This document shows positions 4,721 to 26,528 of a stretch of DNA of 39,832 nucleotides, in pieces. Positions within the stretch are counted from its first letter, which is position 1. Every line of letters begins with the position of its first letter. Position numbers and translations under genes: made by a program. The notes below the pieces were generated by a model. That model did not search any database. It was not told where the DNA came from and saw only the letters and a program-made list of their open reading frames with translations. Source of the DNA: an uncultured bacterium (GTDB lineage Bacteria; Patescibacteriota; Minisyncoccia; Phycocordibacterales; UBA5272). The stretch spans positions 1 to 39,832 of the forward strand of contig CAIQWN010000033.1 in the NCBI GenBank assembly GCA_903875555.1, written 5' to 3'.

Positions 4721-4788
4721 AATGTTTGTAAAATTCTAATTTTTGTGTTTCAATTCTAAATGAACTAACTTTGTTGAAAGGATAGAAT

Positions 4789-4926
4789 GTGAAATCTTAC
4801 GAGTGGAGTAAACCAAAGTTTGTTTCTTACTGGCCGATCATACTTGTTTATGGTTTTGCTTTGGTTGGATTGATAGACATGCTTACGATGATTCCATTTA
4901 AGTGGTTATATCATTTGTTTTTTTAA
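4789..4926 (+). CDS. Putative 45-aa membrane microprotein (not in ORF track)
   Basis: AAGGA SD-like 6 nt before GTG; MKSYEWSKPKFVSYWPIILVYGFALVGLIDMLTMIPFKWLYHLFF; followed by hairpin and T-tract at about 4946-4975. Confidence 0.5.
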   Translation: MKSYEWSKPKFVSYWPIILVYGFALVGLIDMLTMIPFKWLYHLFF

Positions 4927-4990
4927 TTTCAATATTCAGATGATAAAAAGGTGGTGTCGCCCGCATCACCTTTTTGTATTTTGTATTTTT

Positions 4991-5026
4991 TCTGCGTTGT
5001 TCTGCGTTCCGTCTGCGAGTGTCCGC
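4991..5026. repeat. Short 10-11-nt TCTGCG-unit tandem repeat
   Basis: tctgcgttgt tctgcgttccg tctgcgagtg tccgc; related copy at 24340-24377. Confidence 0.6.
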
Positions 5027-5061
5027 ACTTTGATTGTCCACAACTGACATTTCATAATGAG

Positions 5062-5070
5062 TGTTATAAT
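5062..5070 (+). promoter_or_regulatory. Extended -10 promoter of pilT (leaderless-type)
   Basis: TGTTATAAT, 6 nt, then ATG at 5077. Confidence 0.7.
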
Positions 5071-5076
5071 TTTATT

Positions 5077-6135
5077 ATGAATTATGAAACTGAACTCGAT
5101 GATTTAATAATGACTTTAGTTAAAGAATCTGGATCGGATCTACATCTTACTGTGGGGACATTTCCAACTGTTCGTATTAACGGTGAACTTATTTCTTTAA
5201 CAAGAAAAAATGAAGTTACAGCAGAAGATAATGTTGGTTATCTTAATGCTATGATTTCTGAAAAATTATTTACTAATTTTGTTATCAAACAAGAATTAGA
5301 TTTTTCTTATGAACATAAAAAGGAGTATCGTCTTCGTTGCAATGCTTCTTTCCAAAAAGGTGTTATTTCTATAGCGATGCGTTTGGTTGTTAAAGCAAAA
5401 AGTATAGAAGAATTAAATCTTCCAACACAGTTACTTGATTTTGCATCAAGAAAAGAAGGTTTCTTTTTGGTTGTTGGTCCTGTTGGCCAAGGAAAATCAA
5501 CAACATTGTCAGCAATGATTTCTCATATTAATACTTTAGAAAAAAGACACATTGTAACCATTGAAGATCCAATAGAATATGTTTATACACAAGACAAATC
5601 TTTAATAGAACAAAGAGAAGTTGGTATAGACACAGAAAGTTTCCACGAAGCTCTAAGACGTGCCTTTAGACAAGATATGGATGTGATCATGGTTGGAGAA
5701 ATGCGTGATAAAGAAACAATGGCGACCGCTGTTACCGCAGCTGAGACAGGGCATTTAGTTTTGGCTACACTTCACTCAAATTCAGCAGCGCAAACAATAG
5801 ATAGAATAATAGATACATTCCCAGGTGATCAACAAAATCAAATTAGATCACAATTAGCAGCAACTCTTATCGGCATCTTGTCACAAAGATTACTTCCAAG
5901 TATTTCAGGTGGGATGATTCCTGCTTGTGAACTTTTACTTAACACAAAAGCCGTAGCGAACCTTATTCGTGAAAACAGAACTTATGAAATAGATATGTTA
6001 ATAGAAACTGGTTCATCAGAAGGTATGATTGATATGGATAGACACTTAGCAGAACTTGTAAAGAGTGGGCAAGTTTTGAAAGATGTCGCTCGTAAATATT
6101 CAAATAAGACAAGTTTATTTGATAAACTTATTTAA
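5077..6135 (+). CDS. pilT: Pilus retraction ATPase PilT
   Basis: SDLHL, Walker A GPVGQGKST, TIEDPIE, GEMRD, AAETGHLV, AVANLIRE (AIRNLIRE-like); start moved from 4951 to ATG 5077. Confidence 0.93.
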   Translation: MNYETELDDLIMTLVKESGSDLHLTVGTFPTVRINGELISLTRKNEVTAEDNVGYLNAMISEKLFTNFVIKQELDFSYEHKKEYRLRCNASFQKGVISIAMRLVVKAKSIEELNLPTQLLDFASRKEGFFLVVGPVGQGKSTTLSAMISHINTLEKRHIVTIEDPIEYVYTQDKSLIEQREVGIDTESFHEALRRAFRQDMDVIMVGEMRDKETMATAVTAAETGHLVLATLHSNSAAQTIDRIIDTFPGDQQNQIRSQLAATLIGILSQRLLPSISGGMIPACELLLNTKAVANLIRENRTYEIDMLIETGSSEGMIDMDRHLAELVKSGQVLKDVARKYSNKTSLFDKLI

Positions 6136-6140
6136 TTATT

Positions 6141-7361
6141 ATGATTTTTAAATACATTTGTATAAATCAAGAAAATAATCGCGTTGAGGGTACTATTGAT
6201 TCCAAAAATTTAGATACAGCAATTTCAGAATTACAAAAGAAAGACCTAACAGTTATTTCTATTAAGGAAGGAATACAAAAAGGAAGGAATGAAAAAAATG
6301 TTTCGGTTGATAGTGCTTTGTTTAAACAAAAAATAACAGTAAAAGACGTTGTTATTTTTTCAAGACAGATAGCTATCTTGTTTGAGGCTGGTGTTTCTGC
6401 TCTTAAATCTTTTAGATTGCTCGCTACAGAAAACACAAATAGAACATTCGCATTAGAGTTAACAAAAATTGCAGATTTTATTGAGTCTGGTACATCTCTT
6501 TCTAATTCACTTGGAAAAAATCCAGATCTATTTCCTCCTTTTTATGTGAATATGGTGAAGGCTGGCGAAGAAAGTGGAAAATTAAATGATACTTTTATGT
6601 ATTTGGCGGATCATCTTGATCGTGAATATGAATTATCACAAAAAATTAGAAAAGCGGTAACATATCCGATATTCGTGGTCGCAACATTTATAATAGTGCT
6701 AACGATAATGCTTCTTTTTGTTGTTCCAAAAATTTCTGGTATGTTTGCTGAACAAAACATGACGCTACCTTTAGTGACTCGTATAGTTATTGGGCTATCA
6801 AACTTTGTTGTCGATTATTTTATCTACGCTTTTCCTTGTTTGATTTTCTTTTTATGGGTTTGTTATAAATATAATAAAACAGAAAACGGCAAAAGATATT
6901 TTGATTCTCGTAAATTGGAAATTCCTCTACTTAATGATTTTTATAAAAAAGCATTTCTTACAAGACTCTCTGATAATATGAATACAATGATAACATCAGG
7001 TGTGCCAATTGTTCATGCTCTAGAAATTACTGCAAATGTTTTAGATAATTTAATATATAGGGATATGGTTATTCGTATTTCTAAAAAAGTAGAATCAGGT
7101 GTTCCTTTTTCTAAAGCTTTGTACGACGAAGAAGAGATACCAAATATTTTAGTGCAAATGGTTAGAATTGGTGAGGAGACTGGTAAGATTGGTTATGTTT
7201 TGAAAAATTTAGCGAACTTCTATAAAAGAGAGTTGGATAATAGTATTGATAATCTGATTTCTCTAATTGAACCTATAATGATTGTAGGGTTAGGTATTGG
7301 TGTTGGTGGGCTTGTAGCGGCGATTCTTCTTCCAATGTATAGTTTGGCCTCGAATCTATAA
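6141..7361 (+). CDS. pilC: Inner-membrane platform protein PilC/GspF
   Basis: Two T2SSF repeats (AGEESGKL, IGEETGKI), TYP, LIEP, LLPMY. Confidence 0.95.
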   Translation: MIFKYICINQENNRVEGTIDSKNLDTAISELQKKDLTVISIKEGIQKGRNEKNVSVDSALFKQKITVKDVVIFSRQIAILFEAGVSALKSFRLLATENTNRTFALELTKIADFIESGTSLSNSLGKNPDLFPPFYVNMVKAGEESGKLNDTFMYLADHLDREYELSQKIRKAVTYPIFVVATFIIVLTIMLLFVVPKISGMFAEQNMTLPLVTRIVIGLSNFVVDYFIYAFPCLIFFLWVCYKYNKTENGKRYFDSRKLEIPLLNDFYKKAFLTRLSDNMNTMITSGVPIVHALEITANVLDNLIYRDMVIRISKKVESGVPFSKALYDEEEIPNILVQMVRIGEETGKIGYVLKNLANFYKRELDNSIDNLISLIEPIMIVGLGIGVGGLVAAILLPMYSLASNL

Positions 7362-7527
7362 CTAGTTAATAGCCAATAGCCACTAGGGTTTAGGAAATAC
7401 AAATTCAAACGCGGTTTCGCGAAGCGAAACCGCGTTTGAATTTCACTATTGGTTATTAACACATTCGGCTTGCTAGCCTCAGTGTCTTCGTCATCTTCAT
7501 TCCTCGACCTATTGGCTAACAACTAGT
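7361..7527. repeat. Composite palindromic element between pilC and pilin
   Basis: Outer inverted repeat 7362-7379/7509-7526 (16/18 match), inner perfect 20-bp hairpin 7401-7443 (loop GAA), GA-rich module about 7461-7510. Confidence 0.7.
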
Positions 7528-7608
7528 CCAGATATCCACCTTATTCCTTTGCTTTTATTTGTGTAGGTTATATACTGTATTTAATTACTAAACAAGTAAA
7601 AACAAATT

Positions 7609-8226
7609 ATGAATATATTTAATTACTCAAATAAACAAGTTCGCGGTTTTACACTTATCGAATTGCTAGTGGTGATTGCTATTATAGGTCTTCTATCAAC
7701 TGTTATTGCACAACCAGTTACACAAGCATTTAAAAAAGCTCGTGATGGTAAAAAGATTTCAGATATTCACGCAATAGAAGCAGCTCTTCAATCTTACGCA
7801 ACAGCAAATGGTGGTTATTACCCTAATACTTTAGCGGATCTTGTTACATCTAAAGATTTACCAAAATTACCAACAAATGCAGATGGTGCGACTGTATTAA
7901 GAGATAAATATATGTATGTGGTTTATCAAAATAGTGATGTTCCACCTAAAAATATGGGTTATCATTTAGGTGTTAAATTAGAAGTAAATGGACCAGCTCT
8001 TGATGATGACAAAGATTGTACTGGTTTATCTGGAACTACTCCTTGTTTGGTTTATTCAGGTACAGCAGTTGCTACAAATGTTGGTTCTACTGGTTTTTCG
8101 ACAGGTGCTAATGTGGCTTACAGTGGTTCTGCTGATTTTGATGGTGCGGATCTTGGTTCTAAAGAAAATTGTTCATCTACAGTTTTCTTTGGTACAGGTG
8201 CTTGTATCTACGATTTAACACAATAA
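7609..8226 (+). CDS. Type IV pilin, probable major pilin
   Basis: Class III signal RG|FTLIELLVVIAIIGLL, KARD motif, C-terminal Cys pairs; own promoter (TATACT 7571-7576). Confidence 0.88.
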   Translation: MNIFNYSNKQVRGFTLIELLVVIAIIGLLSTVIAQPVTQAFKKARDGKKISDIHAIEAALQSYATANGGYYPNTLADLVTSKDLPKLPTNADGATVLRDKYMYVVYQNSDVPPKNMGYHLGVKLEVNGPALDDDKDCTGLSGTTPCLVYSGTAVATNVGSTGFSTGANVAYSGSADFDGADLGSKENCSSTVFFGTGACIYDLTQ

Positions 8227-8237
8227 TAATTGTCCCT

Positions 8238-9014
8238 GTGTTTTACTTTCTTTCGTTTATTTTTGGATCAGCTATTGGGAGTTTCGTTAATGTGATAGTT
8301 GCGAGACTTGGTGTTTCGTCAATAGTTAAAGGTAGAAGCAAATGTCTTCACTGTAATACAACTCTTTCTTGGAAGGAGTTGTTTCCAGTTTTGTCTTATG
8401 TTATTCAAGATGGTAAGTGTAAAACATGTGATTCTAAATATGGATTTGAGCATTTAGTTGTAGAAATATTTTTTGGCCTATTATTTATTTGCGTCTATTA
8501 TTTCATTTTACTTGGACAAATTGATAAAACTCATCAATTATTTTGGCTTATTTATTATACTTTGTTTTTTATCACATTAGGCACTGTTACTCTCTACGAT
8601 CTTAAACATAAAGTTATCCCAATAAATTATTTTCTAGGTTTTTTTACTCTAACTCTTATTGAATTGTTTTTGAGATATCAAAGTGAGGGAAATTTAGTTG
8701 TTTTTTTGTCTCCACTTGTTGTTTCTTTCCCATTTCTTTTACTTTTTGTTATGTCTCGTGGAAAGTGGCTTGGCTTTGGTGATGTACTTATGCTTATTGC
8801 TGTGGGTTCGTTTTTTGAATTGCTTCAAGGTATCACTGTGTTTTTCTTTTCTGTTTGGATAGGGGCGATAGTTGGTTTGATTTTGAAGTTTATAAATAAA
8901 AAAGTAAAAATGAAGACAGAGATACCGTTCATTCCATTTATTGCGGTTGCGATAATAATTGTTTTATTTACAGATACTGATGTTTTTGGTTTGATTAATG
9001 GACTGTCTTTATAA
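8238..9014 (+). CDS. pilD: Prepilin peptidase
   Basis: GSFVNV, CLHC and CKTC zinc motifs, YDLKHKVIP, GFGD, IPFIPFI; start uncertain (GTG 8238 vs TTG 8169). Confidence 0.92.
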   Translation: MFYFLSFIFGSAIGSFVNVIVARLGVSSIVKGRSKCLHCNTTLSWKELFPVLSYVIQDGKCKTCDSKYGFEHLVVEIFFGLLFICVYYFILLGQIDKTHQLFWLIYYTLFFITLGTVTLYDLKHKVIPINYFLGFFTLTLIELFLRYQSEGNLVVFLSPLVVSFPFLLLFVMSRGKWLGFGDVLMLIAVGSFFELLQGITVFFFSVWIGAIVGLILKFINKKVKMKTEIPFIPFIAVAIIIVLFTDTDVFGLINGLSL

Positions 9015-9040
9015 TTTTATTACGAGATTTGTATTCTAGG

Positions 9041-9398
9041 TGTCATTCCCGTGAAAACGGGAATCTAGGTTAGAATTAAATAATGAAAATGTATTATGTA
9101 TATTTGCTCGCAAGTGGAAGAAACGGAACTTTATATATTGGAGTTACAAATGATTTGAAAAGAAGAGTATATGAACATAAACAAAAGATTATAAAAGGAT
9201 TTACAGAAAAGTATAATGTAAATAATTTAGTTTGGTATGAACAAACAGAAGATGTAAACTCAGCAATTCAAAAAGAAAAAGAAATAAAAAAGTGGAATCG
9301 TAACTGGAAAATAGAGTTAATAGAGAAAGATAATTACGAGTGGAAAGATTTGTATGATGATTTATAGAACCTAGATTCCCGTTTTCACGGGAATGACA
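9041..9398. mobile_element. GIY-YIG gene bracketed by perfect 31-bp inverted repeats
   Basis: TGTCATTCCCGTGAAAACGGGAATCTAGGTT at 9041-9071 and its exact reverse complement at 9368-9398. Confidence 0.75.
9083..9367 (+). CDS. Small stand-alone GIY-YIG nuclease (UPF0213/COG2827-like)
   Basis: YVY...LYIGVTNDLKRRVYEH, FTEKY, conserved E, EKEIKKWNRNWK. Confidence 0.92.
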   Translation: MKMYYVYLLASGRNGTLYIGVTNDLKRRVYEHKQKIIKGFTEKYNVNNLVWYEQTEDVNSAIQKEKEIKKWNRNWKIELIEKDNYEWKDLYDDL

Positions 9399-9446
9399 AT
9401 ACAGTTTTCCACCTAAATTTAATTTTTCGTGTGTTAAAATTAAATA

Positions 9447-10043
9447 ATGAAGCCGTCTCTAAAAAAAATGAAAGCGTTTACTTTGATTGAGCTTTTGATG
9501 TCCACTTCTATATTCGTTCTAATGACAACTATTTTAATGGCAAATTATCCGAATTCTTTGGTTAGATCAAATCTATTTAATTTATCAAACAACACCGTAC
9601 TTCTCCTTCGAGAAGCACAAGTTAAAGGAAGTTCGATCGATGCACAAAGAAATGCTTTGGGTGTAGATACTGTTACTGGTTATGGTATTTATTTTGATAA
9701 AATAAATAATAAAATAATTTATTTTAATGACAAAGGAAATATGTCCAGTCCTGGAAATAAAGTTTATGACGCGGGTAACGGAGAAGCTATCTCTACTGTA
9801 AATATTGTGTCTGGATATCTCATAAATAAATTACGTATTAAAAATAACGATAGTTCAAATTCATACAGTGACACAGATTCACTAACCGTAACGTTTACAA
9901 GACCATCAGTAAAAGCTTTTTTTACCCCAATAACAAAAGAAGTTTGTGTAGAATTAACAACTAAGAAAAATCCAGCTTTAGTTAGAAGTATACAAGTTTA
10001 TAGTTTGGGGAGAATAGTTTCTGGTCCAAAAGAATGTCCATAA
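9447..10043 (+). CDS. Minor pilin (FimT/GspH-like)
   Basis: KA|FTLIELL, LREAQ helix, C-terminal GRI. Confidence 0.8.
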   Translation: MKPSLKKMKAFTLIELLMSTSIFVLMTTILMANYPNSLVRSNLFNLSNNTVLLLREAQVKGSSIDAQRNALGVDTVTGYGIYFDKINNKIIYFNDKGNMSSPGNKVYDAGNGEAISTVNIVSGYLINKLRIKNNDSSNSYSDTDSLTVTFTRPSVKAFFTPITKEVCVELTTKKNPALVRSIQVYSLGRIVSGPKECP

Positions 10044-10044
10044 T

Positions 10045-10689
10045 ATGAAAAATATATTTTTAAAAATTAAAAATACGAAATATAAAGTAAACACAAAAGG
10101 ATTTACATTAATCGAACTCCTTGTCTCTCTTAGTATTTTTTCTTTTGTTGTTGTTATGGCAATTGGAGCATTGTATTCTGCTCAAAATTATTCAGCAAAA
10201 GCACAAGGTTCACAAGTTATTTTAGATGGACTTAATTTTACAATGGAAACAATGTCTCGTGAAATAAGATATGGAACAAATTTTTATTGTGACACAAATT
10301 CTAGTATTACTCTTCCTGGTAATAGTGAAAAGAAAGATTGTTCAGATTTAAATAATTTAGGAAAAACTCTTTATTTTTTACCAAACGGTAACACAGACAG
10401 GGTTTATTATTATTTATTTAAAGATCCTTTTACTGGAAATGGGATAATTAAAAGAATGCAAATAGGTAGTAGTGGACCAGAAGACGTTACCTCTCTTGAA
10501 GATATAGATGTAGAAACATTTAGTTTTTATGTTGAAGGAGCAAAATCAACAGGTCTTTCAGATTATGATCAACCAAGAGTCACTATAATCATTGCAGGAA
10601 AGACAATACCTAATAACGTGAATATTAAACCAACAATATTTAGAATTCAAAATACAGTAACTCAAAGAGTTTTAGATACGGTTCAATAA
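10045..10689 (+). CDS. Minor pilin (PilW/GspJ-like)
   Basis: KG|FTLIELLVSL, MSREIR, QPRVTI. Confidence 0.8.
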   Translation: MKNIFLKIKNTKYKVNTKGFTLIELLVSLSIFSFVVVMAIGALYSAQNYSAKAQGSQVILDGLNFTMETMSREIRYGTNFYCDTNSSITLPGNSEKKDCSDLNNLGKTLYFLPNGNTDRVYYYLFKDPFTGNGIIKRMQIGSSGPEDVTSLEDIDVETFSFYVEGAKSTGLSDYDQPRVTIIIAGKTIPNNVNIKPTIFRIQNTVTQRVLDTVQ

Positions 10690-10702
10690 ATATATCAAAT
10701 TT

Positions 10703-11347
10703 ATGTTAAAAACTTTTACAAAAAATAAAAATCAAAAAGCTTTCACATTAGTAGAAACACTAACGGCTATGACTATTATTATTTTGGCCATACTTGGTCC
10801 ACTTACGGTGGCTGTTTATTCTTTTTCTTATGCCACAGAAACACGAGATAATATAACAGCAACATATTTGGCTGGGGAAGCGATTGAATTATTAAGATAC
10901 AAAAGAGATTCAATACATATTGATGGAACATTTAAAACTGGAAGTATTTATGCGGTAAATCCTTGGAGTAGTTTTAAAAATATATTCGGTACCCAATCAC
11001 CAGTAGGGGGATGTTATATAGATCCGACAACACATATTGGAAATGGTTGTGCTTTTGATATTTTTACTATAGATGATCCGTCACCAATAGTTGCTTGCCC
11101 ATTTTTGTATCGTAATGAAGCAGTAACTAATCCAACATATTTATATAGTTGTAATAGTGGTTTGTATAGTAGTCCTGATAACGTAAAGACATCTTTTTCA
11201 AGAAATGTAAAAATGGAAAATATTGTGCAAGTAAATAATCCAATACCAGACGAAGATGATATTCGTGTAACTTCTACTGTTACTTATAAAAAAAGTAATG
11301 GTCTTTCTAAAAATATTACTGTAATTGACTTCATACACAGAAGATAA
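10703..11347 (+). CDS. Minor pilin (PilV/GspI-like)
   Basis: KA|FTLVETL, ATYLAGEAIE. Confidence 0.8.
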   Translation: MLKTFTKNKNQKAFTLVETLTAMTIIILAILGPLTVAVYSFSYATETRDNITATYLAGEAIELLRYKRDSIHIDGTFKTGSIYAVNPWSSFKNIFGTQSPVGGCYIDPTTHIGNGCAFDIFTIDDPSPIVACPFLYRNEAVTNPTYLYSCNSGLYSSPDNVKTSFSRNVKMENIVQVNNPIPDEDDIRVTSTVTYKKSNGLSKNITVIDFIHRR

Positions 11348-11350
11348 AAT

Positions 11351-11944
11351 ATGAAAACAAAATTATTTAAAATTAAACTTATAAAAGAACAAATAAATAA
11401 GAGGGGTTTCGTGATACCTTTCTCTCTTCTCATTTCTACTATTATTTTAAGTATCTCTTTAGGGGTGTCTCTTATCTTAGTTAAAGAGATTTTCTTTTCA
11501 AAATTAAATAGTGATTCATTGCTTGCTTATTATGCTGCTGATGAAGCCCTTGATTGTGCAATATATTTAAATAATAAATACGTTACAACTGGAAGTGGTA
11601 ATAGTTATGGTCTCTTCCCACATACAAATGAGTCCGAGATTAGTAATACTCTTGGGTTACCTATATATGGTTTAAGTAAAGATAATATAGTTTGTAATAC
11701 ATCACATATTTTTACAAGTCCTAATTATAAAGGGGTTGATAGTGTTAATTGTAGTAACAATATATGTGAAACAAAATATGATATGAAAATGGATTTAGGT
11801 GACGGATCTTTTAGATGTGCAAGTGTAAAGGTTACAGCTAACCCTGATGTAAATGATCCAACAATATTTAATTATTCTTATGTTGCAACAGGATATAGTA
11901 GTTGTGATTCTAGGAATAGAATAGAAAGAAGTTTATTTAAGTAA
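11351..11944 (+). CDS. Minor pilin (PilX/GspK-like, no Glu5)
   Basis: RG|FVIPFSLL lacking E5, AYYAADEALDCA, ATGY...RIERS. Confidence 0.75.
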   Translation: MKTKLFKIKLIKEQINKRGFVIPFSLLISTIILSISLGVSLILVKEIFFSKLNSDSLLAYYAADEALDCAIYLNNKYVTTGSGNSYGLFPHTNESEISNTLGLPIYGLSKDNIVCNTSHIFTSPNYKGVDSVNCSNNICETKYDMKMDLGDGSFRCASVKVTANPDVNDPTIFNYSYVATGYSSCDSRNRIERSLFK

Positions 11945-11968
11945 TTTTCTGCTTGTTAATCGCTGTGA

Positions 11969-14092
<2,124 letters not shown>

Positions 14093-14130
14093 ATATTTTG
14101 TTTTAATCTTAAGCGAACTTTATATACTTT

Positions 14131-14205
14131 TACCGCTGTACCACTCGTTGCTACTCGCGGTATCTTCCTCGCTCTTCGCTTCGTCGAACTATCACGGAAT
14201 ATTTT
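14131..14205 (-). repeat. Duplicate of tRNA-Asn 5' end interrupted by a 47-nt GA-rich insert
   Basis: ctatcacggaatatttt at 14083-14099 and 14189-14205; taccgctg at 14073-14080 and 14131-14138. Confidence 0.7.
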
Positions 14206-14235
14206 AGTTTTTATTTTAAAAAACAGTTACTACAT

Positions 14236-14282
14236 AATACACAGAAAATAACACCTTTGCAAGGTGTTATTTTCTGTGTATT
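14236..14282. terminator. 22-bp perfect hairpin downstream of the 14509 gene
   Basis: aatacacagaaaataacacctt-TGC-aaggtgttattttctgtgtatt. Confidence 0.7.
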
Positions 14283-14509: not shown

Positions 14510-14611
14510 ATTATGTAATTTTAACACAGTATTTGTAAGTCTTTAGTTATTGTGGTGGATAAGTATATTGTTGTGTTATACTTAAATATATCAAGTAATT
14601 AAATTAAATAT

Positions 14612-14968: not shown

Positions 14969-14974
14969 ATAGTT

Positions 14975-15748: not shown

Positions 15749-15791
15749 TAGTTTAGTAATTAGCCACTAGGGTATAGTTAATAGTAGATCC

Positions 15792-15836: not shown

Positions 15837-15871
15837 TAGTTTCTTAGTCCCTAAAATCTATCACCTAAAAT

Positions 15872-16747: not shown

Positions 16748-16749
16748 AA

Positions 16750-17292: not shown

Positions 17293-17306
17293 ATCTATAA
17301 TCTATC

Positions 17307-18084
17307 AATAAAAAACATAAAACACAAGGAAGTCAATGGTTTAAATATGAATGATTTACAAAATATCTGGTATGTTGTAGTGTATTAATTGAGGTTTTTA
17401 TTTTTTGGAGGACGTTATGTATATAGACTTATCTGATATGGATACATTCAACTCCTTGCCAATAGACGACAGTGTTCTTTGCGATAGGGTTGTTGAATAT
17501 TTACAAAAGTATCATTTGATTAAGGGTGACGCAACTAACTGTTCTACTCTTGCAAGATTTTTGTTTGATGGTAAGTTCGTAGAATGTTCATCTGGTAATG
17601 AATATTTTTCTTTTGAAGAAAGTTTTGTTTTTTATTCTAATCAAGAAATAAACACAGGAGACACTATATGTTTTTTATTTCACAGAAGAATTGTAAATGA
17701 TCACGAAGATATTATTACAAGGCTTTATCTTGAGATGAAAGATTCCCTCGCTAAACATTTGTTTTGTGGTGGTGGTTCTGTTTTAGTTTCTTCGTCTGAT
17801 ATAAGAACAGCTTTTAAAAATTCTCAATATGACGAGTTTCATCTTGTTGTGTGTTTGGATGGTGAGAAGAAAATGTTTATTCACCAAGATGGAATTGACG
17901 GCACGTGTTCTATTTTTACATTGAAAGATGTAAGTGGTTTTTCAAAAATCCCAGCAACTATATTATTAAGGAGGAAAAAATAAAAGACGATGTTTTTCGC
18001 AAGGTGCCACGAAGTAAATATTTATTGCGTGGCACTTATCATTTTTGTAATAAAAAACATAAAACACAAGGAAGTCAATGGTTT
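17307..18084. mobile_element. Single-gene insertion bounded by a perfect 36-bp direct repeat
   Basis: AATAAAAAACATAAAACACAAGGAAGTCAATGGTTT at 17307-17342 and 18049-18084. Confidence 0.7.
17417..17983 (+). CDS. ORFan, possible divergent NlpC/P60-like Cys-His hydrolase
   Basis: GGAGGA SD; NCS...GDTICF...FHLVVCL...FIHQ; terminator at about 18004-18035. Confidence 0.5.
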   Translation: MYIDLSDMDTFNSLPIDDSVLCDRVVEYLQKYHLIKGDATNCSTLARFLFDGKFVECSSGNEYFSFEESFVFYSNQEINTGDTICFLFHRRIVNDHEDIITRLYLEMKDSLAKHLFCGGGSVLVSSSDIRTAFKNSQYDEFHLVVCLDGEKKMFIHQDGIDGTCSIFTLKDVSGFSKIPATILLRRKK

Positions 18085-18119
18085 TAAGTTGATTGCCATG
18101 GTGTTATAATGCGCTCACT

Positions 18120-19133
18120 ATGAGTTTTTTCTCTAAAAAAATTGGTATAGATTTGGGGACGGCAAATACTTTAGTTTTTGTTCCAGGAAAAGGAATTGTT
18201 CTTATTGAACCTTCTGTGGTGGCTGTTTCTCAAACAGAAAATAAAATATTAGCTGTTGGAAGTGAGGCGAAAGATATGATTGGAAAAACCCCTGATTCAA
18301 TTATTGCTTATCGTCCAATGCGTGACGGAGTGATCGCGGATTATCGTGTCACAGAAGCCATGCTTCGTTATTATATAAATAAGGCACTGGGCTCTTATAA
18401 TTTTTGGAAGCCGGATGTGATGATTTCTGTGCCTGCGGGTGTGACAGGAACAGAACGTCGTGCCGTTATTGAAGCTGCTATAAACGCCGGAGCAAAAAAT
18501 GCTTATGTTGTAAAAGAACCAATACTTGCAGCTATTGGTGCAGGTATTCCTATTCATGAAGCAAAAGGAAGAATGATTGTAGATATTGGAGGAGGAACAA
18601 CTGATGTGGCCGTAATTTCTCTTGGTGGTATTGTTTGTTCTACATCTGTTAAATGTGCTGGGGATAAAATTGATCAAGCGATAATTGATTATATAAAAAA
18701 GACTTATAATCTTGCAATTGGAGATCAGACAGCTGAAGAAATAAAAATAAAAATTGGATCAGCTCTTCCTATTGAAGAAGAACTTGTAATGAAAGTAAAA
18801 GGTAGAGATTTTATTGCTGGACTTCCAAGAACTGTTGAGATAAGAACAAATGAGATTGTAAAAGCTATAGATAAAGAATTACGTTTAATGGTTAAAGCAA
18901 TTAAGGATGTTCTTCAAGAAACCCCACCGGAACTTGCTAGTGATATTATTGATAATGGAATAATTATGTCAGGTGGATCATCAATGCTTGCCAATCTTCC
19001 AGATTTAGTTGAGAGAAGAACTGGTGTAAAGGCAGTACTTGCTCCTGATGCATTTTATTGTGTTGTTAAGGGAACTGGAGTTGCACTCGAACATTTGGAT
19101 ACGTACAAAAAATCTATCTTCACAAAACGCTAA
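18120..19133 (+). CDS. mreB: MreB/Mbl actin-like protein (paralog 1)
   Basis: IGIDLGTAN, EPSVVA, VDIGGGTT, GGSSML; ATG 18120 after TGTTATAAT. Confidence 0.95.
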   Translation: MSFFSKKIGIDLGTANTLVFVPGKGIVLIEPSVVAVSQTENKILAVGSEAKDMIGKTPDSIIAYRPMRDGVIADYRVTEAMLRYYINKALGSYNFWKPDVMISVPAGVTGTERRAVIEAAINAGAKNAYVVKEPILAAIGAGIPIHEAKGRMIVDIGGGTTDVAVISLGGIVCSTSVKCAGDKIDQAIIDYIKKTYNLAIGDQTAEEIKIKIGSALPIEEELVMKVKGRDFIAGLPRTVEIRTNEIVKAIDKELRLMVKAIKDVLQETPPELASDIIDNGIIMSGGSSMLANLPDLVERRTGVKAVLAPDAFYCVVKGTGVALEHLDTYKKSIFTKR

Positions 19134-19136
19134 TAA

Positions 19137-19247
19137 GGGTGTCATTCCCGCGAAAGCGGGAATCCAGTGTTAAGAATTTTAAATTTGTAATTTTTTAATG
19201 AAATACAAAATGAAACCTAGATTCCCGCTTTCGCGGGAATGACACCC
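19137..19247. mobile_element. Non-coding MITE-like derivative of the GIY-YIG element
   Basis: GGGTGTCATTCCCGCGAAAGCGGGAATCCAG at 19137-19167 and inverted copy at 19217-19247 (30/31), 49-nt AT-rich core. Confidence 0.75.
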
Positions 19248-19395
19248 AAAATAGTGACACAAAAATAATTTTCTGACAACAACATTTTTTAATGCTTTGT
19301 GAACTGTTTTTAAATTTTTGTTTAAGATAAACTTTCGATTAAAGTAGTTTTCGTAATTTACAGCAGTTCGTTAATTAATTATTTGGGAGATCGTC

Positions 19396-19902
19396 ATGGC
19401 AAAGATACAAGAGTTTCAAGCGCCTAAAGATGATCTCTTTGGGTTTGATAGCAAGACAGTGAGTGTTGTTCCTGTTAGTGAAATGTTTTATGGAAAAGTA
19501 GTTGATGAAGTAATTAAAAATTATCAATCATTAATTAAAAAAATAACTGTCGACGTTGTCACAAAATATTCCATTTTATCTGGAGTGATTTTTGTTCGCA
19601 GGGGAAAGAATAGTTTTGCTTTTTATGTTCATGTTGAAACAATAAGTAAAGAAGGTATTGTAAAGTTTTCTTTCACCACTAATCGTCTTTATGGTGAGAC
19701 ATTAAGATTAAATGAATGCCTATCTTTTGTTTTACAAGAATGTGGTTTGTGTGATTTACACCAACCTCTTTCCATACACAATGGACATCTTTCTGGTTTT
19801 ATTAATATATCTGACGCTGTTTATATTCAGGAGTCAGAAAAAAGTATTGGTATGTATTATTTGAAGGATGAGATAAGTACAAAGCAAGAAGGTTTGTTTT
19901 AG
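19396..19902 (+). CDS. Hypothetical protein (SD-led ORFan)
   Basis: GGGAG 6 nt before ATG; hairpin agagtgtgg/ccacactct right after the stop. Confidence 0.7.
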   Translation: MAKIQEFQAPKDDLFGFDSKTVSVVPVSEMFYGKVVDEVIKNYQSLIKKITVDVVTKYSILSGVIFVRRGKNSFAFYVHVETISKEGIVKFSFTTNRLYGETLRLNECLSFVLQECGLCDLHQPLSIHNGHLSGFINISDAVYIQESEKSIGMYYLKDEISTKQEGLF

Positions 19903-19960
19903 AGTGTGGTTCGATATTATGTGTCGTCCACACTCTGTTTGTTTTTGTTATACTTAAAAA

Positions 19961-20614
19961 ATGAAATTAAAGGACTTACCAAATAGTCAGGTGATATTGA
20001 TTGTCGATGATGCAAGGCAAGACCTTGCAGAAAATTTTTGGAGTGAGATAAAAAATGAACACTCTCCAAATATTTTTATAAACAAAACTGTGGTTGATAT
20101 GGATACGGGTAGGAATATTATTTCTTGGGCGAATACACCTTTTAATGGAAACAAAACTTGTATAATTTCTTTTCATACAATAACTCTTCCAACCCAGAAT
20201 TCATTACTTAAGGTTTTAGAAGAAGTTAAAAACGGTATTGGTTTTATTTTAATAACAAGCAATGAAGAGGCCTTGATTCCAACAGTTCTTTCAAGATTAC
20301 ATAAAATCAAGAAGCAAGAATCAAGAAGCAAGAATCAAGAAGACGCACAAAAATTCTTTGAAACTAAATCAACAGAAAGGATGAAATTAAAAAGTGTAGT
20401 GGGGCTTTTAAATCAAGAAGATGAAGAGGGGAGAAAAGACAGAGAAGCAGTTAAAAGTTTTATTTCAGATTTAATTAAATTTGGCAGAGAAAATAATTTA
20501 GAAAGTAAAAAATTAATTAAATTAATTGAAATGGAAAATTATGCAGGTGATCCGTCAGCCAGTGGAAAAACCATCGTAGAATTTATTTCACTTTACTTGC
20601 CCGTTATACGTTGA
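19961..20614 (+). CDS. holB: Reduced DNA polymerase III delta-prime-like subunit
   Basis: TQNSLLKVLEE, FILIT, LIPTVLSRL; short, no clear Walker A. Confidence 0.7.
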   Translation: MKLKDLPNSQVILIVDDARQDLAENFWSEIKNEHSPNIFINKTVVDMDTGRNIISWANTPFNGNKTCIISFHTITLPTQNSLLKVLEEVKNGIGFILITSNEEALIPTVLSRLHKIKKQESRSKNQEDAQKFFETKSTERMKLKSVVGLLNQEDEEGRKDREAVKSFISDLIKFGRENNLESKKLIKLIEMENYAGDPSASGKTIVEFISLYLPVIR

Positions 20615-20634
20615 TATACTTTTGTGTATTCCTT

Positions 20635-21105: not shown

Positions 21106-21146
21106 AGGTAACTACCCCTATGCAAAGCATAGGGGTAGTTACCTTT
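21104..21146. terminator. 20-bp perfect hairpin after the FKBP gene
   Basis: aaaggtaactacccctatgc-AAA-gcataggggtagttaccttt. Confidence 0.75.
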
Positions 21147-21332
21147 TTAACTCCTCAACTCGAAAAAGAAAAAGATTACTTTTAAATTAGTCTACGGCCA
21201 AGCCGCGAATCTGTTGATTCGTTTACGTCGTCAATAAAAAATATTTCAGAAATTAATTTTACTTGTTATAAATTAAATAGTGTGGTATTGTTTGGTGTAA
21301 GTTTCCCTAATTAATTTTTAATGGAGAAAAAA

Positions 21333-21548
21333 ATGAGCAAAGGAGAGTTTAGTGATGAGAGTGGTCTTTTTGATTCTTTTCCGGAAATTGATTTTAATCG
21401 CTTGCGTGCAAGTAAAGAAAAAGGACCTGATAACTTTTTTAGCAGAGGTGATGAGACAGATTTTGTCACACTGCCTCAGTTGTTACCAAGAAAAAAACAA
21501 GAACCATTGGATCTTGACACGATACCTTTTCTTGTGAATTTTAAGTAA
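21333..21548 (+). CDS. Small acidic hypothetical protein (SD-led ORFan)
   Basis: TTGTTA-17-TATTGT promoter, GGAG 6 nt before ATG 21333, hairpin 21573-21593. Confidence 0.6.
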   Translation: MSKGEFSDESGLFDSFPEIDFNRLRASKEKGPDNFFSRGDETDFVTLPQLLPRKKQEPLDLDTIPFLVNFK

Positions 21549-21632
21549 TATTGTGTGGTCTGTTTTTTAGTTCCGCTGCCCTTTGGGTGGCGGTTTGTGT
21601 TATAATCTAATTTATAAATTAAAAATTACACT

Positions 21633-22181: not shown

Positions 22182-22204
22182 AAAGTCAAAAATAAGAAAT
22201 AAAC

Positions 22205-22227
22205 AAGGCGAGCCTATGGCTCGCCTT
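22205..22227. terminator. Bidirectional terminator between frr and the convergent ORFan
   Basis: aaggcgagcc-TAT-ggctcgcctt. Confidence 0.7.
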
Positions 22228-22243
22228 TGTTGTCAGTGATATT

Positions 22244-22564
22244 TCAACTGAGAACATCCTTACTTTTTTTCGTTGGTTTTTTGGGATCCTCTGATAATTT
22301 CTTTTTTGCACCGTTTGCACAGTCAATAAACATTTTCTGCGGTATCTTTTCGTATTCGATATCCGCTGAAAAGTTTATTGTTATCATGCTTGGTTGACCA
22401 AATGATTTGCTTGCGACACATACAAGTGGGCCAAGCCTTTCTTCGTGAACCTGAGAAGGTGGATAGGTATATACCTGTGTAGATTGCTGGGCAAATGCTT
22501 GGTCGCCGTTTAGAAAGATCATAACCCAGTATGTAACGAATAAAACTCTAAAGATCATGTTCAT
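22244..22564 (-). CDS. Probable secreted small protein (SD-led ORFan)
   Basis: Signal-peptide-like N-terminus ending AFA|Q, two Cys; GGGAG SD; TTGACC-17-TATTAT promoter. Confidence 0.7.
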   Translation of the reverse strand: MNMIFRVLFVTYWVMIFLNGDQAFAQQSTQVYTYPPSQVHEERLGPLVCVASKSFGQPSMITINFSADIEYEKIPQKMFIDCANGAKKKLSEDPKKPTKKSKDVLS

Positions 22565-22685
22565 GTTTTACTCCCGTTGGTGATTTTGAACTTTTAAATA
22601 ATAACACTTATTTAGTTTTTGGTCAAATTAAATTTATTTTGATAAATTTTATGTTTCTTGTAAAGTTTTCTGTTATACTCTTCAT

Positions 22686-23777
22686 ATGTTCATAATTCTA
22701 TTTTTTATAATTTTACTTGCACTTGTTTTTGTTCACGAGTTTGGTCACTTTATTACAGCTAAATGGGTTGGGATGAGAGTTGATGAATTTGCCTTTGGAT
22801 TTCCTCCTCGAATTTTTTCTAAAAAAGTTGGTGAGACAGAATATTCTGTGAATGCTTTACCTCTTGGTGGTTATGTTTCTATTTACGGAGAGAATGGAGA
22901 GAAAGATGATGTTGCAAAAACTGACAAAAGAAGTTTTGGTAATCGTCCAATTTGGTCTCAGCTTTTTGTCTTGTCTGCCGGAGTAATTATGAATATTTTA
23001 TTTGCTTATTTTATTTTTGTTGTTACCTCTATTGGTAATACAGAAATAACTTTGAGTGATAATCAAAAATTTTTAGGTAAAGTTAAAGAAACAAGTGTGA
23101 TTGTTTTAGATACAAGTAAAGGTAGTCCAGTACAAATGGCAGGGATTAAAGCAGGTGACAGACTTTTGAATTTAGAAAGTCGCGGTGCAAAAATAAAAGG
23201 AGATACCGCAGAGAAAACAATTTCTTTTATCGAATCACATATAAATGAACCAATCAAAATAACTTACAAAGATTTAAATAATAAAATAAAAGATACAACA
23301 ATTACAGGTGTTTATGGAATTTTAGAAAACAAAAAAGCTCTTGGTATAGCATTGGATACAGTTGGGGTTATAGATGCTAGTTTCGGTGATGCTATTGTTT
23401 TAGGTAAAGATAAATTAAAAAATATTTTCTTTGCAGTTTTTGGCGGAATGTATCATATAGGGGATTCTGTTTTACATGGAGAAAATGTTATTAATTCTTT
23501 CGTTGGGCCGATTGGTATAGCCAAGATGGTTGATGATACAAAAGCTTTTGGTTTTGTTGCACTACTTACTTTTACTGCAGTTCTTTCTGTTAATCTTGCG
23601 ATATTTAATTCATTACCATTACCAGCACTCGACGGGGGAAGATTTTTAATTATTATTTTAGAAACAATTTTCAAAAAGAAAGTTCCAATAAAAATAATGA
23701 CAATAATGAACAGTTTCTTTTTCTTGTTGTTAATTATTATGTTGATCGCAGTTACTGTGAAGGATATTATAAAGTAG
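22686..23777 (+). CDS. rseP: Site-2 (M50) intramembrane metalloprotease with PDZ domain
   Basis: HEFGH, PLGGYV, NSLPLPALDGG. Confidence 0.93.
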   Translation: MFIILFFIILLALVFVHEFGHFITAKWVGMRVDEFAFGFPPRIFSKKVGETEYSVNALPLGGYVSIYGENGEKDDVAKTDKRSFGNRPIWSQLFVLSAGVIMNILFAYFIFVVTSIGNTEITLSDNQKFLGKVKETSVIVLDTSKGSPVQMAGIKAGDRLLNLESRGAKIKGDTAEKTISFIESHINEPIKITYKDLNNKIKDTTITGVYGILENKKALGIALDTVGVIDASFGDAIVLGKDKLKNIFFAVFGGMYHIGDSVLHGENVINSFVGPIGIAKMVDDTKAFGFVALLTFTAVLSVNLAIFNSLPLPALDGGRFLIIILETIFKKKVPIKIMTIMNSFFFLLLIIMLIAVTVKDIIK

Positions 23778-23863
23778 TTATTTATTAGACAAGTATAATG
23801 TAGTGTGTTAGTGTATTAGTGTGTTGGGTGTGAGTTGTCCTTTTAATCTATTGGGAGAGTGTT

Positions 23864-24289
23864 ATGAAAAACGCCTATGCTACAATCAATGAACTCATTC
23901 TTTTTTTGAAAGAATTGAAAAAAGAATTTGGGGAGGGTCAGTCGTTGTCGCATTTATCTATGTCTCAAATCAAAGATGTTCTATTTCTTGAAGTATTAAT
24001 GGATGCAAAAAACACAGAGAGTATTAAGAAAATTTTTGAACACAGACATCTTTTTGACGACGAGGATTATAAAGTCAAAACGCGAAGATTCTCTTTGTTG
24101 TTGCAAAAATGGGTATCGGTATGTAACACAGAAGAAGAGTTAATTCATTTGCGTTGGGCTAGTGGTATAAATAACCCAGATATGATTACCGATTATCGTG
24201 ATTTTGTTGAAAAATATTACGATCGCCTCGATCAATTTAAAAAAGAAAAAAATAAAAGTGGTCTTGGCTTCAAAGGTGTCCAAGATTGA
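23864..24289 (+). CDS. Hypothetical helical protein (SD-led ORFan)
   Basis: TAGACA-17-TAGTGT, GGGAG 6 nt before ATG, GC hairpin 24299-24328. Confidence 0.7.
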   Translation: MKNAYATINELILFLKELKKEFGEGQSLSHLSMSQIKDVLFLEVLMDAKNTESIKKIFEHRHLFDDEDYKVKTRRFSLLLQKWVSVCNTEEELIHLRWASGINNPDMITDYRDFVEKYYDRLDQFKKEKNKSGLGFKGVQD

Positions 24290-24404
24290 GACACGGTCAT
24301 CCCCGTTCGCGTAATTGCGGACGGGGATTTGTAATTTCTTCCGCGTTATTCTGCGTTACGTCTGCGTGTTTCTGTGGTTTTATTTTTTATGTTAAAATAA
24401 AACA

Positions 24405-25691
24405 ATGAGACAATCAAAATTATTTATAAAAACAAGAAAGGAAGCTCCAGCTGATGAGGTTTCGAAGAATGCAATATTGCTTACTCGCGCAGGGTTTATT
24501 CATAAAGAGATGGCTGGTGTTTATACATTTTTACCACTTGGTCTTAAAGTTTTAAATAATATCGAAAATATAATTCGTTATCATATGGATGAGATTGGTC
24601 GCGAACTTTTAATGTCAGCGTTATCTCCAATGGAAAAATGGCAGAATACAGGCAGACTTGAAACTGTTGATGTTCTTATGAAAACTTCTGGGGCCAATGA
24701 GGTATCAAAAGTAAAATCAACAAATGAATATATTTTAAACTCTACTCACGAAGAAATAATTACTCCGATCGTTGCTGAATATATTCGTTCGTACAAAGAA
24801 TTGCCGGTATCGTTTTATCAAATACAAACAAAATTTAGAAATGAGGCGCGTGCTAAGTCAGGACTACTTCGTGGTCGTGAATTTAGAATGAAAGATTTAT
24901 ATTCTTTTCACAAAGATGAAGAGGATATGAAAAAATATTACGAAGAAGCAAAGAAAGTTTACATGAATGTTTTCAATGATCTTGGAATTGGTGATGATAC
25001 TTATATAACACTTGCTAGTGGTGGAGATTTTACAAAAGAGTATTCACATGAATTTCAAACACTTACAGAGACAGGTGAAGATACAATTTATTTGGATAGA
25101 AAAAATAATATTGCTTATAACAAAGAGGTTGTGAATGAAGAGACAGAGAAAAAATTGGGTGTTAAATTTAATGATATGGAACAAGTGAATGCGTCTGAGG
25201 TTGGAAATATATTTCCACTTAATATTAAATTTAGTGAAGCTCTAAATTATACTTATGCAAATGATAAGGATGAACAATTACCAGTTTATATGGGTTGTTA
25301 TGGTATGGGTCCATCAAGAATTATGGGTGTTATCGTAGAAAAATTTGCAGATGAAAAAGGTTTGGTATGGCCAGAATCAATTGCACCGTATTCACTTCAT
25401 TTAATTTCTCTTGCAAAAAGTGATGAGACAAAAAAGAAAGCAGAAGAAATTTATGAAAAGTTATTATCCTTCGGTGTAGAGGTTTTGTTTGATGATAGAG
25501 ATGAAAGTGCTGGAGCAAAATTTGCTGATAGTGATTTGATTGGTATTCCAATGCGCGTAGTAGTTTCTGATAAATCACTTTCTGCGGGTGGTGTAGAAAT
25601 AAAAGAAAGAGTAGCTGAAAAAAGTGAAATAGTTGGAGTAGAAGAATTTTTGAAAGAGTGGAGTACTGGTGGAAGTTGTGCTTGTTGCTAA
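24405..25691 (+). CDS. proS: Prolyl-tRNA synthetase, short form without INS editing domain
   Basis: THEE, QTKFRNE.R..GLLRGREF.MKD, MGCYG.G.SR, anticodon-binding domain. Confidence 0.96.
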   Translation: MRQSKLFIKTRKEAPADEVSKNAILLTRAGFIHKEMAGVYTFLPLGLKVLNNIENIIRYHMDEIGRELLMSALSPMEKWQNTGRLETVDVLMKTSGANEVSKVKSTNEYILNSTHEEIITPIVAEYIRSYKELPVSFYQIQTKFRNEARAKSGLLRGREFRMKDLYSFHKDEEDMKKYYEEAKKVYMNVFNDLGIGDDTYITLASGGDFTKEYSHEFQTLTETGEDTIYLDRKNNIAYNKEVVNEETEKKLGVKFNDMEQVNASEVGNIFPLNIKFSEALNYTYANDKDEQLPVYMGCYGMGPSRIMGVIVEKFADEKGLVWPESIAPYSLHLISLAKSDETKKKAEEIYEKLLSFGVEVLFDDRDESAGAKFADSDLIGIPMRVVVSDKSLSAGGVEIKERVAEKSEIVGVEEFLKEWSTGGSCACC

Positions 25692-25730
25692 TATAAAATG
25701 AAAACACCTCGCAATGATCTGCAAGAGTTT

Positions 25731-26015
25731 TCATTGTGAGGTGTTGTTGTTTGGTAGAAGATTTTGGTTTTTCCAGACGGTCAATATGGCCCATTCCATT
25801 TCTCCGGTTGTATACTCTACCAAACACTCAGGATGCCTTTTTCTGAGTTTAAGTATAAAATCGTGATTTAGTAAACGTGTAGCAAGCGGAGATAAATCGT
25901 TCCTATTGCGGTGTGTGCGTAGATAACTAGCCATTCTTTCTGGAAGGTCTTGACAATTTTCCAGTAACACATTTGATATCTGTTCTGCTGTTATCTGTAG
26001 TCGAACATTATTCAT
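25731..26015 (-). CDS. Hypothetical protein (cassette-like ORFan)
   Basis: TTGACG-17-TAACTT promoter; weak SD; stop inside hairpin 25703-25745. Confidence 0.65.
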   Translation of the reverse strand: MNNVRLQITAEQISNVLLENCQDLPERMASYLRTHRNRNDLSPLATRLLNHDFILKLRKRHPECLVEYTTGEMEWAILTVWKNQNLLPNNNTSQ

Positions 26016-26155
26016 GGGTTATCTTTCTTTGTATATGTTAAAGGACAATGTATTACGACAAGTTATCACAACAAACTACTTTCGTCAATGTAAAATGAAA
26101 ACACCTGCATAGAAAAACTTTTACAGATGTTTTTTCTATGCAGGATGTTGAAAGC

Positions 26156-26413
26156 TTACGCAACACCATGTTTCGTTTTCCATGTATTGATGTAAGATGC
26201 CAAGAAACTATGTCTACTTTCATCAGTAAGGAAAAGATCAAGGATGACTTGTAGTGTAATATCTGTCGACATAGTTTTTATTTTTTCAGTGACACGATAA
26301 AGACATTTTTCTGAGCAAACCTTTCGACAGATATCCTTATCGAAAGTAATGTTTGGATTCTGATTTAACAGGCCTTCCACTGCTTCATGATGATTTACTA
26401 TTTTTGTCGTCAT
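26156..26413 (-). CDS. Hypothetical protein (SD-led ORFan)
   Basis: TTGACA-17-TATGTT promoter; GGAGG 4 nt before ATG 26413; hairpin at about 26100-26149. Confidence 0.65.
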   Translation of the reverse strand: MTTKIVNHHEAVEGLLNQNPNITFDKDICRKVCSEKCLYRVTEKIKTMSTDITLQVILDLFLTDESRHSFLASYINTWKTKHGVA

Positions 26414-26528
26414 GTTTCCTCCAGGATACAACTCATGTTATAGGTTTAGAAACTTTATAATAAAACATATCACTCGACTATATATTTGTCAAGAATACTC
26501 ATATATTTATTTATGTTAAAATAGCCGA

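Follow-up and report, generated by a model that had tools for sequence, protein, structure and literature searches.

Shine–Dalgarno-like motifs set lineage-specific genes apart from native genes in a Parcubacteria-type genome lacking an anti-Shine–Dalgarno sequence

In known bacterial genomes of the leaderless type, operon-internal genes usually keep a Shine–Dalgarno (SD) sequence and the anti-SD of the 16S rRNA is present. Phage 'morons' and flexible genomic islets are autonomous units of promoter, open reading frame (ORF) and terminator that lie between conserved genes. In leaderless bacterial genes the -10 box lies about 10 nucleotides (nt) before the start, according to the available text of Zheng et al. 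(2011, PMC3160421) and of the GeneMarkS-2 report (PMC6028130). According to the accessible part of Amin et al. (2018, PMC6107228), recognisable SD motifs are generally missing too where the anti-SD is absent. The accessible part of Tsurumaki et al. (2022, RNA 28:1041, PMC9297842) reports a subgroup of Parcubacteria without CCUCCU after helix 45 of the 16S rRNA, which overlaps the group without ribosomal protein uL1 and in which SD helices are probably not formed. Here we analysed a 39,832-nt stretch of DNA (the window, contig C33 of genome G000) from a Parcubacteria-type bacterium of the Candidate Phyla Radiation (CPR), in which orphan ORFs (ORFans) with SD-like motifs lie between housekeeping genes. 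We consider it probable, at roughly 0.65, that the SD-bearing ORFans are recently acquired genes which carry their donors' expression signals, and that these signals are unreadable by this ribosome through base pairing.

The source genome G000 comprises 714 kb in 45 contigs, is 96% complete and has about 33% GC. Its genes were taken from our own simple caller (744 confident genes and 51 gap ORFs), and the start sites are likewise our own calls. Two whole genomes were used for comparison: G016 belongs to the same genus and has 627 kb with 41% GC, and G141 belongs to another family and has 564 kb with 43% GC. Using blastp (E<1e-5), we classed genes as shared when they had a match in both other genomes and as unique when they had a match in neither, so that the classes refer to two comparison genomes only. 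We counted as SD-like any GGAG, GAGG or longer match lying 4-9 nt upstream of the called start. The results showed that the motif preceded 0 of 298 shared and 42 of 333 unique genes in G000 (p=8e-13), 5 of 304 and 36 of 278 in G016 (p=4e-8), and 3 of 302 and 42 of 291 in G141 (p=6.5e-11). SD frequency thus differs sharply between conserved and lineage-specific genes in three genomes, in agreement with the preliminary description of the window, which had been made from its letters alone and had proposed such a difference. When any candidate start was allowed and 5-mers were searched in G000, the counts were 0/417 shared and 54/366 unique genes, indicating that the contrast is independent of start choice.

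The position of the motif is precise. Among unique genes of G000, GGAG or GAGG occurred 38 times at 6-8 nt from the start, compared with about 4 times per neighbouring 3-nt bin, and it did not occur there in shared genes; the same peak at 6-8 nt was found in the unique genes of all three genomes. GGGAG was followed by ATG at a gap of 6 nt 18 times in G000, compared with about 5.5 times at other gaps, and 12 of these cases opened an ORF of at least 45 amino acids (aa), compared with about 1.5. The start codon was ATG in 39 of the 43 unique SD-bearing G000 genes, 11 of which come from the permissive second tier of the gene caller.

The single 16S gene of G000 has a normal helix 45, which is followed by GGAUUAAUUCAAUG instead of the canonical anti-SD. 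CCUCC is absent after helix 45 and from the remaining 246 nt of the 16S contig, and the canonical tail was found nowhere in the genome; the inspection of the 16S 3' end that had been recommended earlier therefore leaves G000 without any anti-SD. G016 and G141 also lack it. We examined 35 16S loci in 32 genomes, of which 11 belong to the genus and 21 to other families of the order, and none of the loci has CCTCC within 26 nt of helix 45; these loci are real genes because helix 45 changes among them in a compensatory manner (GGG/CUC versus GGC/GUC). Judged from these tails, the loss of the anti-SD is common to the whole order as sampled. A search for uL1 (PF00687) gave no match in the 96%-complete G000, while all 14 control genomes matched. 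A displaced anti-SD downstream of 16S was ruled out, as no conserved CCTCC occurs within up to 1.6 kb in relatives. A new SD/anti-SD pair built on the altered tail was also rejected: there is no dip of duplex energy before starts against the genome's own tail, and the leaders of core genes show no complementarity to it. As a separate observation, the tail after helix 45 in G000 (contig C39, L001:3141-3170) can form a mini hairpin UUCA-N2-3-UGAA. This form is possible in 18 of 28 distinct tails, and two others have UUCC..GGAA, a possible compensatory change; of the 8 tails with neither form, six were without any match and two had odd matches only, and the support for the hairpin is weak.

The absence of SD motifs from core genes can be related to the way in which these genes seem to start, a reason not seen in the preliminary description, whose reading is otherwise supported in part. 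The profile upstream of G000 starts reads T-15, G-14, T-12, A-11, A-9, A-8, T-7 and T-1. TAnnnT beginning at -12 (a box from -12 to -7 relative to the ATG) was found before 119 of about 438 operon-first genes, compared with about 20 at other offsets. Operon-internal genes of G000 are A-rich at -8 to -2, have T at -1 in 76% of cases and show no SD. As an extended -10 element (TGnTAnnnT) that ends 6 nt before the ATG, this box suggests a transcription start at the A of the ATG, so that native core mRNAs should mostly be leaderless and would need no ribosome-binding site. Core genes would then lack an SD because they are leaderless, the -10 box occupying the place of the SD, and this mode would fit a 16S rRNA without the canonical anti-SD. 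In the window, leaderless-type starts were found at pilT, ligA, def, holB, rseP, proS and the second mreB, including the following:

5065 to 5079, plus strand: pilT start, TATAAT at -12 to -7, ATG at 5077.
19946 to 19963, plus strand: holB start, TGtTATACT, 6 nt, ATG at 19961.
22674 to 22688, plus strand: rseP start, TATACT at -12 to -7, ATG at 22686.
24390 to 24407, plus strand: proS start, TGtTAAAAT, 6 nt, ATG at 24405.
26514 to 26531, plus strand: second mreB start, TGtTAAAAT, 6 nt, ATG at 26529.

The SD-bearing genes also differ from the rest in composition and upstream signals. The median GC content at third codon positions (GC3) of unique SD-bearing versus unique SD-less genes was 0.33 versus 0.22 in G000, 0.46 versus 0.33 in G016 and 0.74 versus 0.42 in G141 (p from 1e-8 to 2e-19), with interquartile ranges of the SD-bearing genes of 0.27-0.37, 0.40-0.51 and 0.63-0.79, respectively. 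In G000 the motif becomes more frequent as GC3 rises: 1/195 genes carry it in the lowest GC3 quartile and 21/79 in the top decile. GC1 exceeds GC2 in the SD-bearing genes, as in real coding sequence, and their coding score under the native model is low (median 0.24 versus 0.54 per residue). The flavour of the motif varies by genome (GGGAGA, AGGAGA, xGGAGG), which is expected if donor pools differ. A TTGAC-type -35 together with a -10 preceded 7 of 29 SD-bearing versus 4 of 189 shared genes in G000, and 7 of 27 versus 4 of 137 in G016 (24-26% versus 2-3%), whereas the leaderless-type -10 box was found at 0% of SD-bearing and 32-43% of shared genes. We ruled out that GGGAGA is a discriminator or transcript start right after a -10 box, as the distance from TAnnnT to GGAG is flat.

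No Pfam family was found for 37 of the 43 unique SD-bearing G000 genes; the remaining six are pyrC, pyrD, pyrF, purC, an MMPL-like protein and an LTD/PKD protein. Where SD-bearing genes have a homologue in another genome, the homologues are SD-less, the sole exception being a purC pair (42% identical). The preliminary description had taken the class for single-gene units dropped between housekeeping genes, either acquired from SD-using donors or separately regulated. A distinct, acquired class is the best-supported part of that claim, but only 12 of 40 SD-bearing unique genes of G000 stand alone between shared genes, the others adjoining further unique genes.

The window contains type IV pilus genes (117-11944), ligA, hpf, fmt, def, two mreB genes, holB, frr, rseP, proS, leuS and others. 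Between 4770 and 26500, GGAG or GAGG at 4-9 nt upstream of the start was found in 0 of 19 recognisable genes, and SD-like motifs lie 4-7 nt upstream of six ORFans, both as described earlier; two further ORFans, at 26015 on the minus strand and at 4789, are weak cases. The features are as follows:

4778 to 4926, plus strand: weak case, AAGGA at 4778-4782, GTG start at 4789, 45-aa hydrophobic ORF ending at 4926, read from the sequence.
About 4947 to 4985, plus strand: GC-rich hairpin with a T run, downstream of the 4789 ORF.
17307 to 18095, plus strand: cassette 1, GGAGG at 17407-17411, 5 nt before the ATG; ORFan 17417-17983, 188 aa; palindrome at 18004-18035.
17307 to 17353 (copy A) and 18049 to 18095 (copy B), plus strand: direct repeat of cassette 1, 47 nt, 91% identical, 36 nt exact.
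19385 to 19902, plus strand: cassette 2, GGGAG at 19385-19389, 6-nt spacer; ORFan 19396-19902, 168 aa.
21323 to 21593, plus strand: cassette 3, GGAG at 21323-21326, 6 nt before the ATG at 21333; 71-aa ORF ending at 21548; terminator-like hairpin at 21573-21593.
22205 to 22626, minus strand: cassette 4, TTGACC-17-TATTAT at 22626-22598; GGGAG at 22575-22571, 6 nt before the ATG; ORFan 22564-22244, 106 aa; hairpin at 22227-22205.
23853 to 24328, plus strand: cassette 5, GGGAG at 23853-23857, 6 nt before the ATG; ORFan 23864-24289, 141 aa; hairpin at 24299-24328.
25690 to 26106, minus strand: cassette 6, without an intact SD; ORFan 26015-25731, 94 aa, with only AAGAAAGA as upstream motif; weak hairpin at 25726-25707.
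25690 to 25709 and 26087 to 26106, minus strand: direct repeat of cassette 6, 20 nt.
26156 to 26492, minus strand: cassette 7, TTGACA-17-TATGTT at 26492-26464; GGAGG at 26422-26418, 4 nt before the ATG at 26413; 85-aa ORF ending at 26156.

The 4789 ORF is below the length accepted by the gene caller and hence outside the statistics. Cassette 3 has an alternative ATG at 21321, the GGAG-spaced start being that at 21333. The N-terminus of the cassette 4 ORFan is signal-peptide-like, and its GC3 is 0.37 versus 0.21 for native genes; the cassette 6 ORFan has a GC3 of 0.34 and a negative coding score. Promoters of the -35/17-nt/-10 type, which had been attributed to most of the ORFans, were seen before those at 26413 and 22564 (both minus strand), but overall such sites do not exceed shuffled sequence in the window region (52 found, 56.5 +/- 7.5 expected). 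The claim of a terminator hairpin for most of the ORFans fared better: the region has more terminator-like hairpins than expected (15 found, 5.9 +/- 2.5 expected), and such hairpins follow the ORFans ending at 21548, 22244 (minus), 24289 and 25731 (minus), and a palindrome follows the one ending at 17983. Searches of Pfam and PHROGs gave no family for any of the 8 ORFans. The Atlas structure models found had predicted local distance difference test (pLDDT) values of 0.32 and 0.38 (the model of ORFan 19396 being of low confidence), and no usable look-alikes were obtained.

To compare gene order, we used five genomes of the same genus. In all of them the succession hpf, PPIase, fmt, def, mreB, holB, frr, rseP, proS, mreB, mreC and PBP2 is retained and all 8 ORFans are missing. 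None of the ORFans is thus conserved in place, the opposite of an outcome that the preliminary description had named as refuting. The gap between rseP and proS in G016 is 39 nt long, an empty site for ORFan 23864, and the gap between proS and the second mreB is 136 nt in G016 versus 838 nt in G000. The relatives have gap ORFs of their own, which are unrelated to the window ORFans and likewise carry GGAG-type motifs. The slot between def and mreB (window 17293-18119) holds different content in different species: it contains the 188-aa ORFan in G000 and a gene of about 620 aa on the opposite strand in relatives. This gene has a leaderless-type start at four loci (L094, L095, L097 and L098) and an SD-flagged motif before its start at another (L096).

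Among 60 other genomes of the family, ORFan 23864 has no homologue and ORFan 19396 only one marginal match (E 7e-4, 26% identity). Two homologues of ORFan 19396, with 77% and 43% identity, were found among 5.8 billion proteins and are of unknown origin. At the strain level, the ORFan junctions are spanned by contigs from four DNA runs of a single lake-water study; the ORFans are fixed in these contigs, with none skipped. No RNA run was found to contain the sequence. No repeat common to the cassettes, as in integron or transposon cassettes, was found in the window, nor was an integrase. A phage origin was rejected, since none of the 8 ORFans had a match in PHROGs and no locus beyond the same or a near genome was obtained when viral contigs were scanned twice. 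One viral-contig record encodes a relative of ORFan 19396-19899; it comes from the same or a near genome, and a copy of the contig may sit in the viral collection.

Several repeats were observed besides those of the cassettes. Direct repeats of 19-25 nt that resemble tRNA fragments flank several genes elsewhere in G000 (C2:9946-12257, C19:17925-19517 and C26:10361-18317), which suggests insertions at tRNA genes. In the window, a 25-nt direct repeat (14080-14104 and 14186-14210) overlaps the end of a tRNA-Asn gene (14020-14092, minus strand) and is followed by a perfect 22-nt hairpin (14236-14282); the stretch 14020-14282 may be a scar left by an old insertion. A hairpin repeat rich in GC (GGTGTCATTCCCG...CGGGAAT) occurs at 9040-9070, before the GIY-YIG gene at 9083, and at 19130-19254, where it makes up an inverted pair of 38 nt immediately after mreB. 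Contig depth at these two places is 21 and 13, compared with about 5, and several assembly joints fall inside, so that the repeat looks like a multi-copy small mobile element or a repetitive extragenic palindromic (REP)-like element.

Recognisable enzymes among the SD-bearing genes give some view of possible donors. On G000 contig C11 (1010-5791), pyrF, pyrD, pyrC and two further unique genes form an island of raised GC (0.37-0.44), and transfer seems to have built up a pyrimidine pathway in this CPR genome. The pyrC-like gene is closest to Gallionellaceae/Nitrosomonadales, with at most 68% identity (80 genome and 80 metagenome loci); a closer relative or intermediate donor was sought among these 160 loci, and none exceeded 68% identity and none was low in GC. 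The purC-like copies in the order are only 26-56% identical and may be separate acquisitions.

From these results, the genome would hold two expression architectures, a native leaderless one and a minority class of leadered, SD-bearing genes with about 40-55 members per genome, six to eight of them in the window. A typical member would consist of a classical -35/-10 promoter, a leader of 25-45 nt, RGGAG(A/G) 6-7 nt before the ATG and a short familyless ORF, and a terminator hairpin is often present around the window ORFans. We propose that these are recent foreign genes that would have kept their donors' promoter, SD and codon composition and been placed in variable slots between conserved genes. 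Part of this is observed, namely the presence and precise placement of the motifs, the loss of the anti-SD, the contrast between gene classes in three genomes, the empty sites in relatives and the foreign composition; we infer the transcription start sites, the route of acquisition and the SD not being read. Since the SD cannot pair with the 16S tail, these mRNAs would be translated, if at all, without SD pairing.

A number of observations weigh against recent acquisition of unread signals. No donor is known for the ORFans; of the three searched for among 5.8 billion proteins, two (17417 and 23864) have no homologue but themselves. Flanking direct repeats were ruled out as a general insertion scar, as repeats of at least 12 nt occur at 3 of 44 SD-bearing genes, similar to other gene classes. 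Neutral relics should also leave decayed ghosts, unless the loss of cassettes far outpaces their mutation, yet one-step decayed variants (G>A) at a spacing of 6-8 nt numbered only 6 in G000 and 3 in G016, compared with 31 and 30 intact GGAG, and showed no excess. The spacing is tight (6-7 nt in 25/38 G000 and 29/35 G016 genes), and A directly follows GGAG in 21/38 and 20/35, respectively. All of pyrC, pyrD and pyrF retain GGAG-type motifs; pyrC has kept AGGAG despite a large shift towards AT (GC3 0.34, compared with 0.77-0.87 in its nearest relatives), and this AGGAG sits inside the 3' end of pyrD, a neighbour absent in those relatives, whose own upstream SD is weak, so that the motif lies in a junction which they do not have. 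Furthermore, the motif precedes 9 of the 11 purC-like genes from those genomes of the order that lack an anti-SD. Apart from the donor and repeat results, the same observations speak for an unlikely alternative, in which the motif is functional: leadered accessory genes would need RGGAGA 6-7 nt before the ATG, a non-canonical reader (a different part of the rRNA, a ribosomal protein or some RNA-binding factor) would recognise it, and purifying selection would maintain it. However, native leadered and operon-internal genes never use the motif (0/298), so the translation machinery does not need it, and motif flavour and GC3 vary by genome, which fits donor pools better than a single conserved receptor. 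The few SD-bearing genes with homologues have SD-less ones, except for the purC pair, and the SD-bearing genes of G141 are near a donor-like composition (GC3 0.74) and look young. No partner was provided by the genome's own 16S tail or by CsrA (0 matches); regulation of the CsrA type through GGA motifs was ruled out, as no CsrA gene was found. A related and equally doubtful formulation is that two initiation modes coexist, a leaderless one for the core and an anti-SD-independent 'SD' mode with a selected motif; in a milder variant, loss of the anti-SD would act as a translational barrier to incoming SD-dependent genes, and the SD set would fingerprint the main donor, perhaps the host. Recent acquisition with donors' signals still accounts best for the whole, and a fast turnover of cassettes would reconcile most of the points against it.

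The fairly narrow, genome-specific GC3 range and motif flavour of the SD-bearing genes, together with the type IV pilus genes in the window, are also consistent with one dominant DNA donor per genome, possibly the host bacterium of an episymbiont or its mobile elements, with uptake through the competence/type IV pilus apparatus. We regard this as improbable: a chromosomal donor should give mostly recognisable genes, which does not agree with the 37 of 43 lacking a Pfam family, and there is no known host and only three genomes stand behind the comparison. Its stronger form, in the preliminary description, held that the genes are tuned for host-type ribosomes; this gained no support, and no mechanism is known for mRNA export or for expression in another cell. 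A last explanation, to which we give hardly any weight, takes the class for chance or annotation artefact, that is, spurious ORFs in locally G-rich intergenic DNA near GGAG. Many of the ORFs are indeed short with low coding scores and low-confidence structure models, and a quarter or so of the G000 set (the 11 of 43) comes from the permissive tier. The explanation is already contradicted by the positional and replication tests, namely the sharp spacing peak and the repetition of the result in three genomes, and GC1 > GC2, the prevalence of ATG starts, promoters upstream genome-wide, terminators after window ORFans and clear enzymes among the members (pyrC/D/F and purC) also argue against it.

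If the SD-bearing genes are recent arrivals, the initiation signal alone would separate native from foreign genes in this lineage, and the SD motif would serve as a simple marker, independent of composition, for genes recently acquired in a major uncultured group. It would imply that small foreign genes pass rapidly through fixed slots between genes, and it raises the question of how, or whether, an anti-SD-less ribosome translates SD-led mRNAs, including the apparently useful pyrC/D/F and purC. Gene finders trained on a single start model will mis-call starts in these genomes. Anti-SD loss in some Parcubacteria is already published; in the accessible text of the literature searched, we found neither the gene-start mode nor the fate of incoming genes, and no description of leaderless use or of SD-bearing accessory genes in anti-SD-less CPR bacteria.

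Compared with known systems, this genome resembles the anti-SD-less, uL1-less Parcubacteria (PMC9297842) in a 16S rRNA without CCUCCU, in the lack of a detectable uL1 and in small size, and the gene-start mode and the SD-bearing subset described here go beyond the available part of that account. With bacterial leaderless genes (PMC3160421; PMC6028130, as available) it shares TAnnnT at -12 to -7 and native genes without SD; in contrast to known leaderless genomes, no native gene class has an SD and the anti-SD is gone. The SD-bearing genes show the upstream motif of functional SD/anti-SD initiation without a complementary CCUCC in the genome's own 16S rRNA, and they show both the atypical composition and the empty sites in relatives that characterise horizontally acquired genes and islets. 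Like morons and islets, they include one-gene units, each with a promoter and a terminator, at sites where relatives have the flanking genes side by side, and the content of these slots turns over. Unlike phage morons, they are chromosomal in a reduced, episymbiont-type genome, have no phage match (0/8 ORFans) and carry a translation signal that would be unreadable by pairing. As in the organisms covered by the accessible part of Amin et al. (PMC6107228), SD is genome-wide not the initiation signal here; unlike the picture given there, a discrete 5-7% of the genes, all of them lineage-specific, carry a well-placed SD that an averaged motif search would miss.

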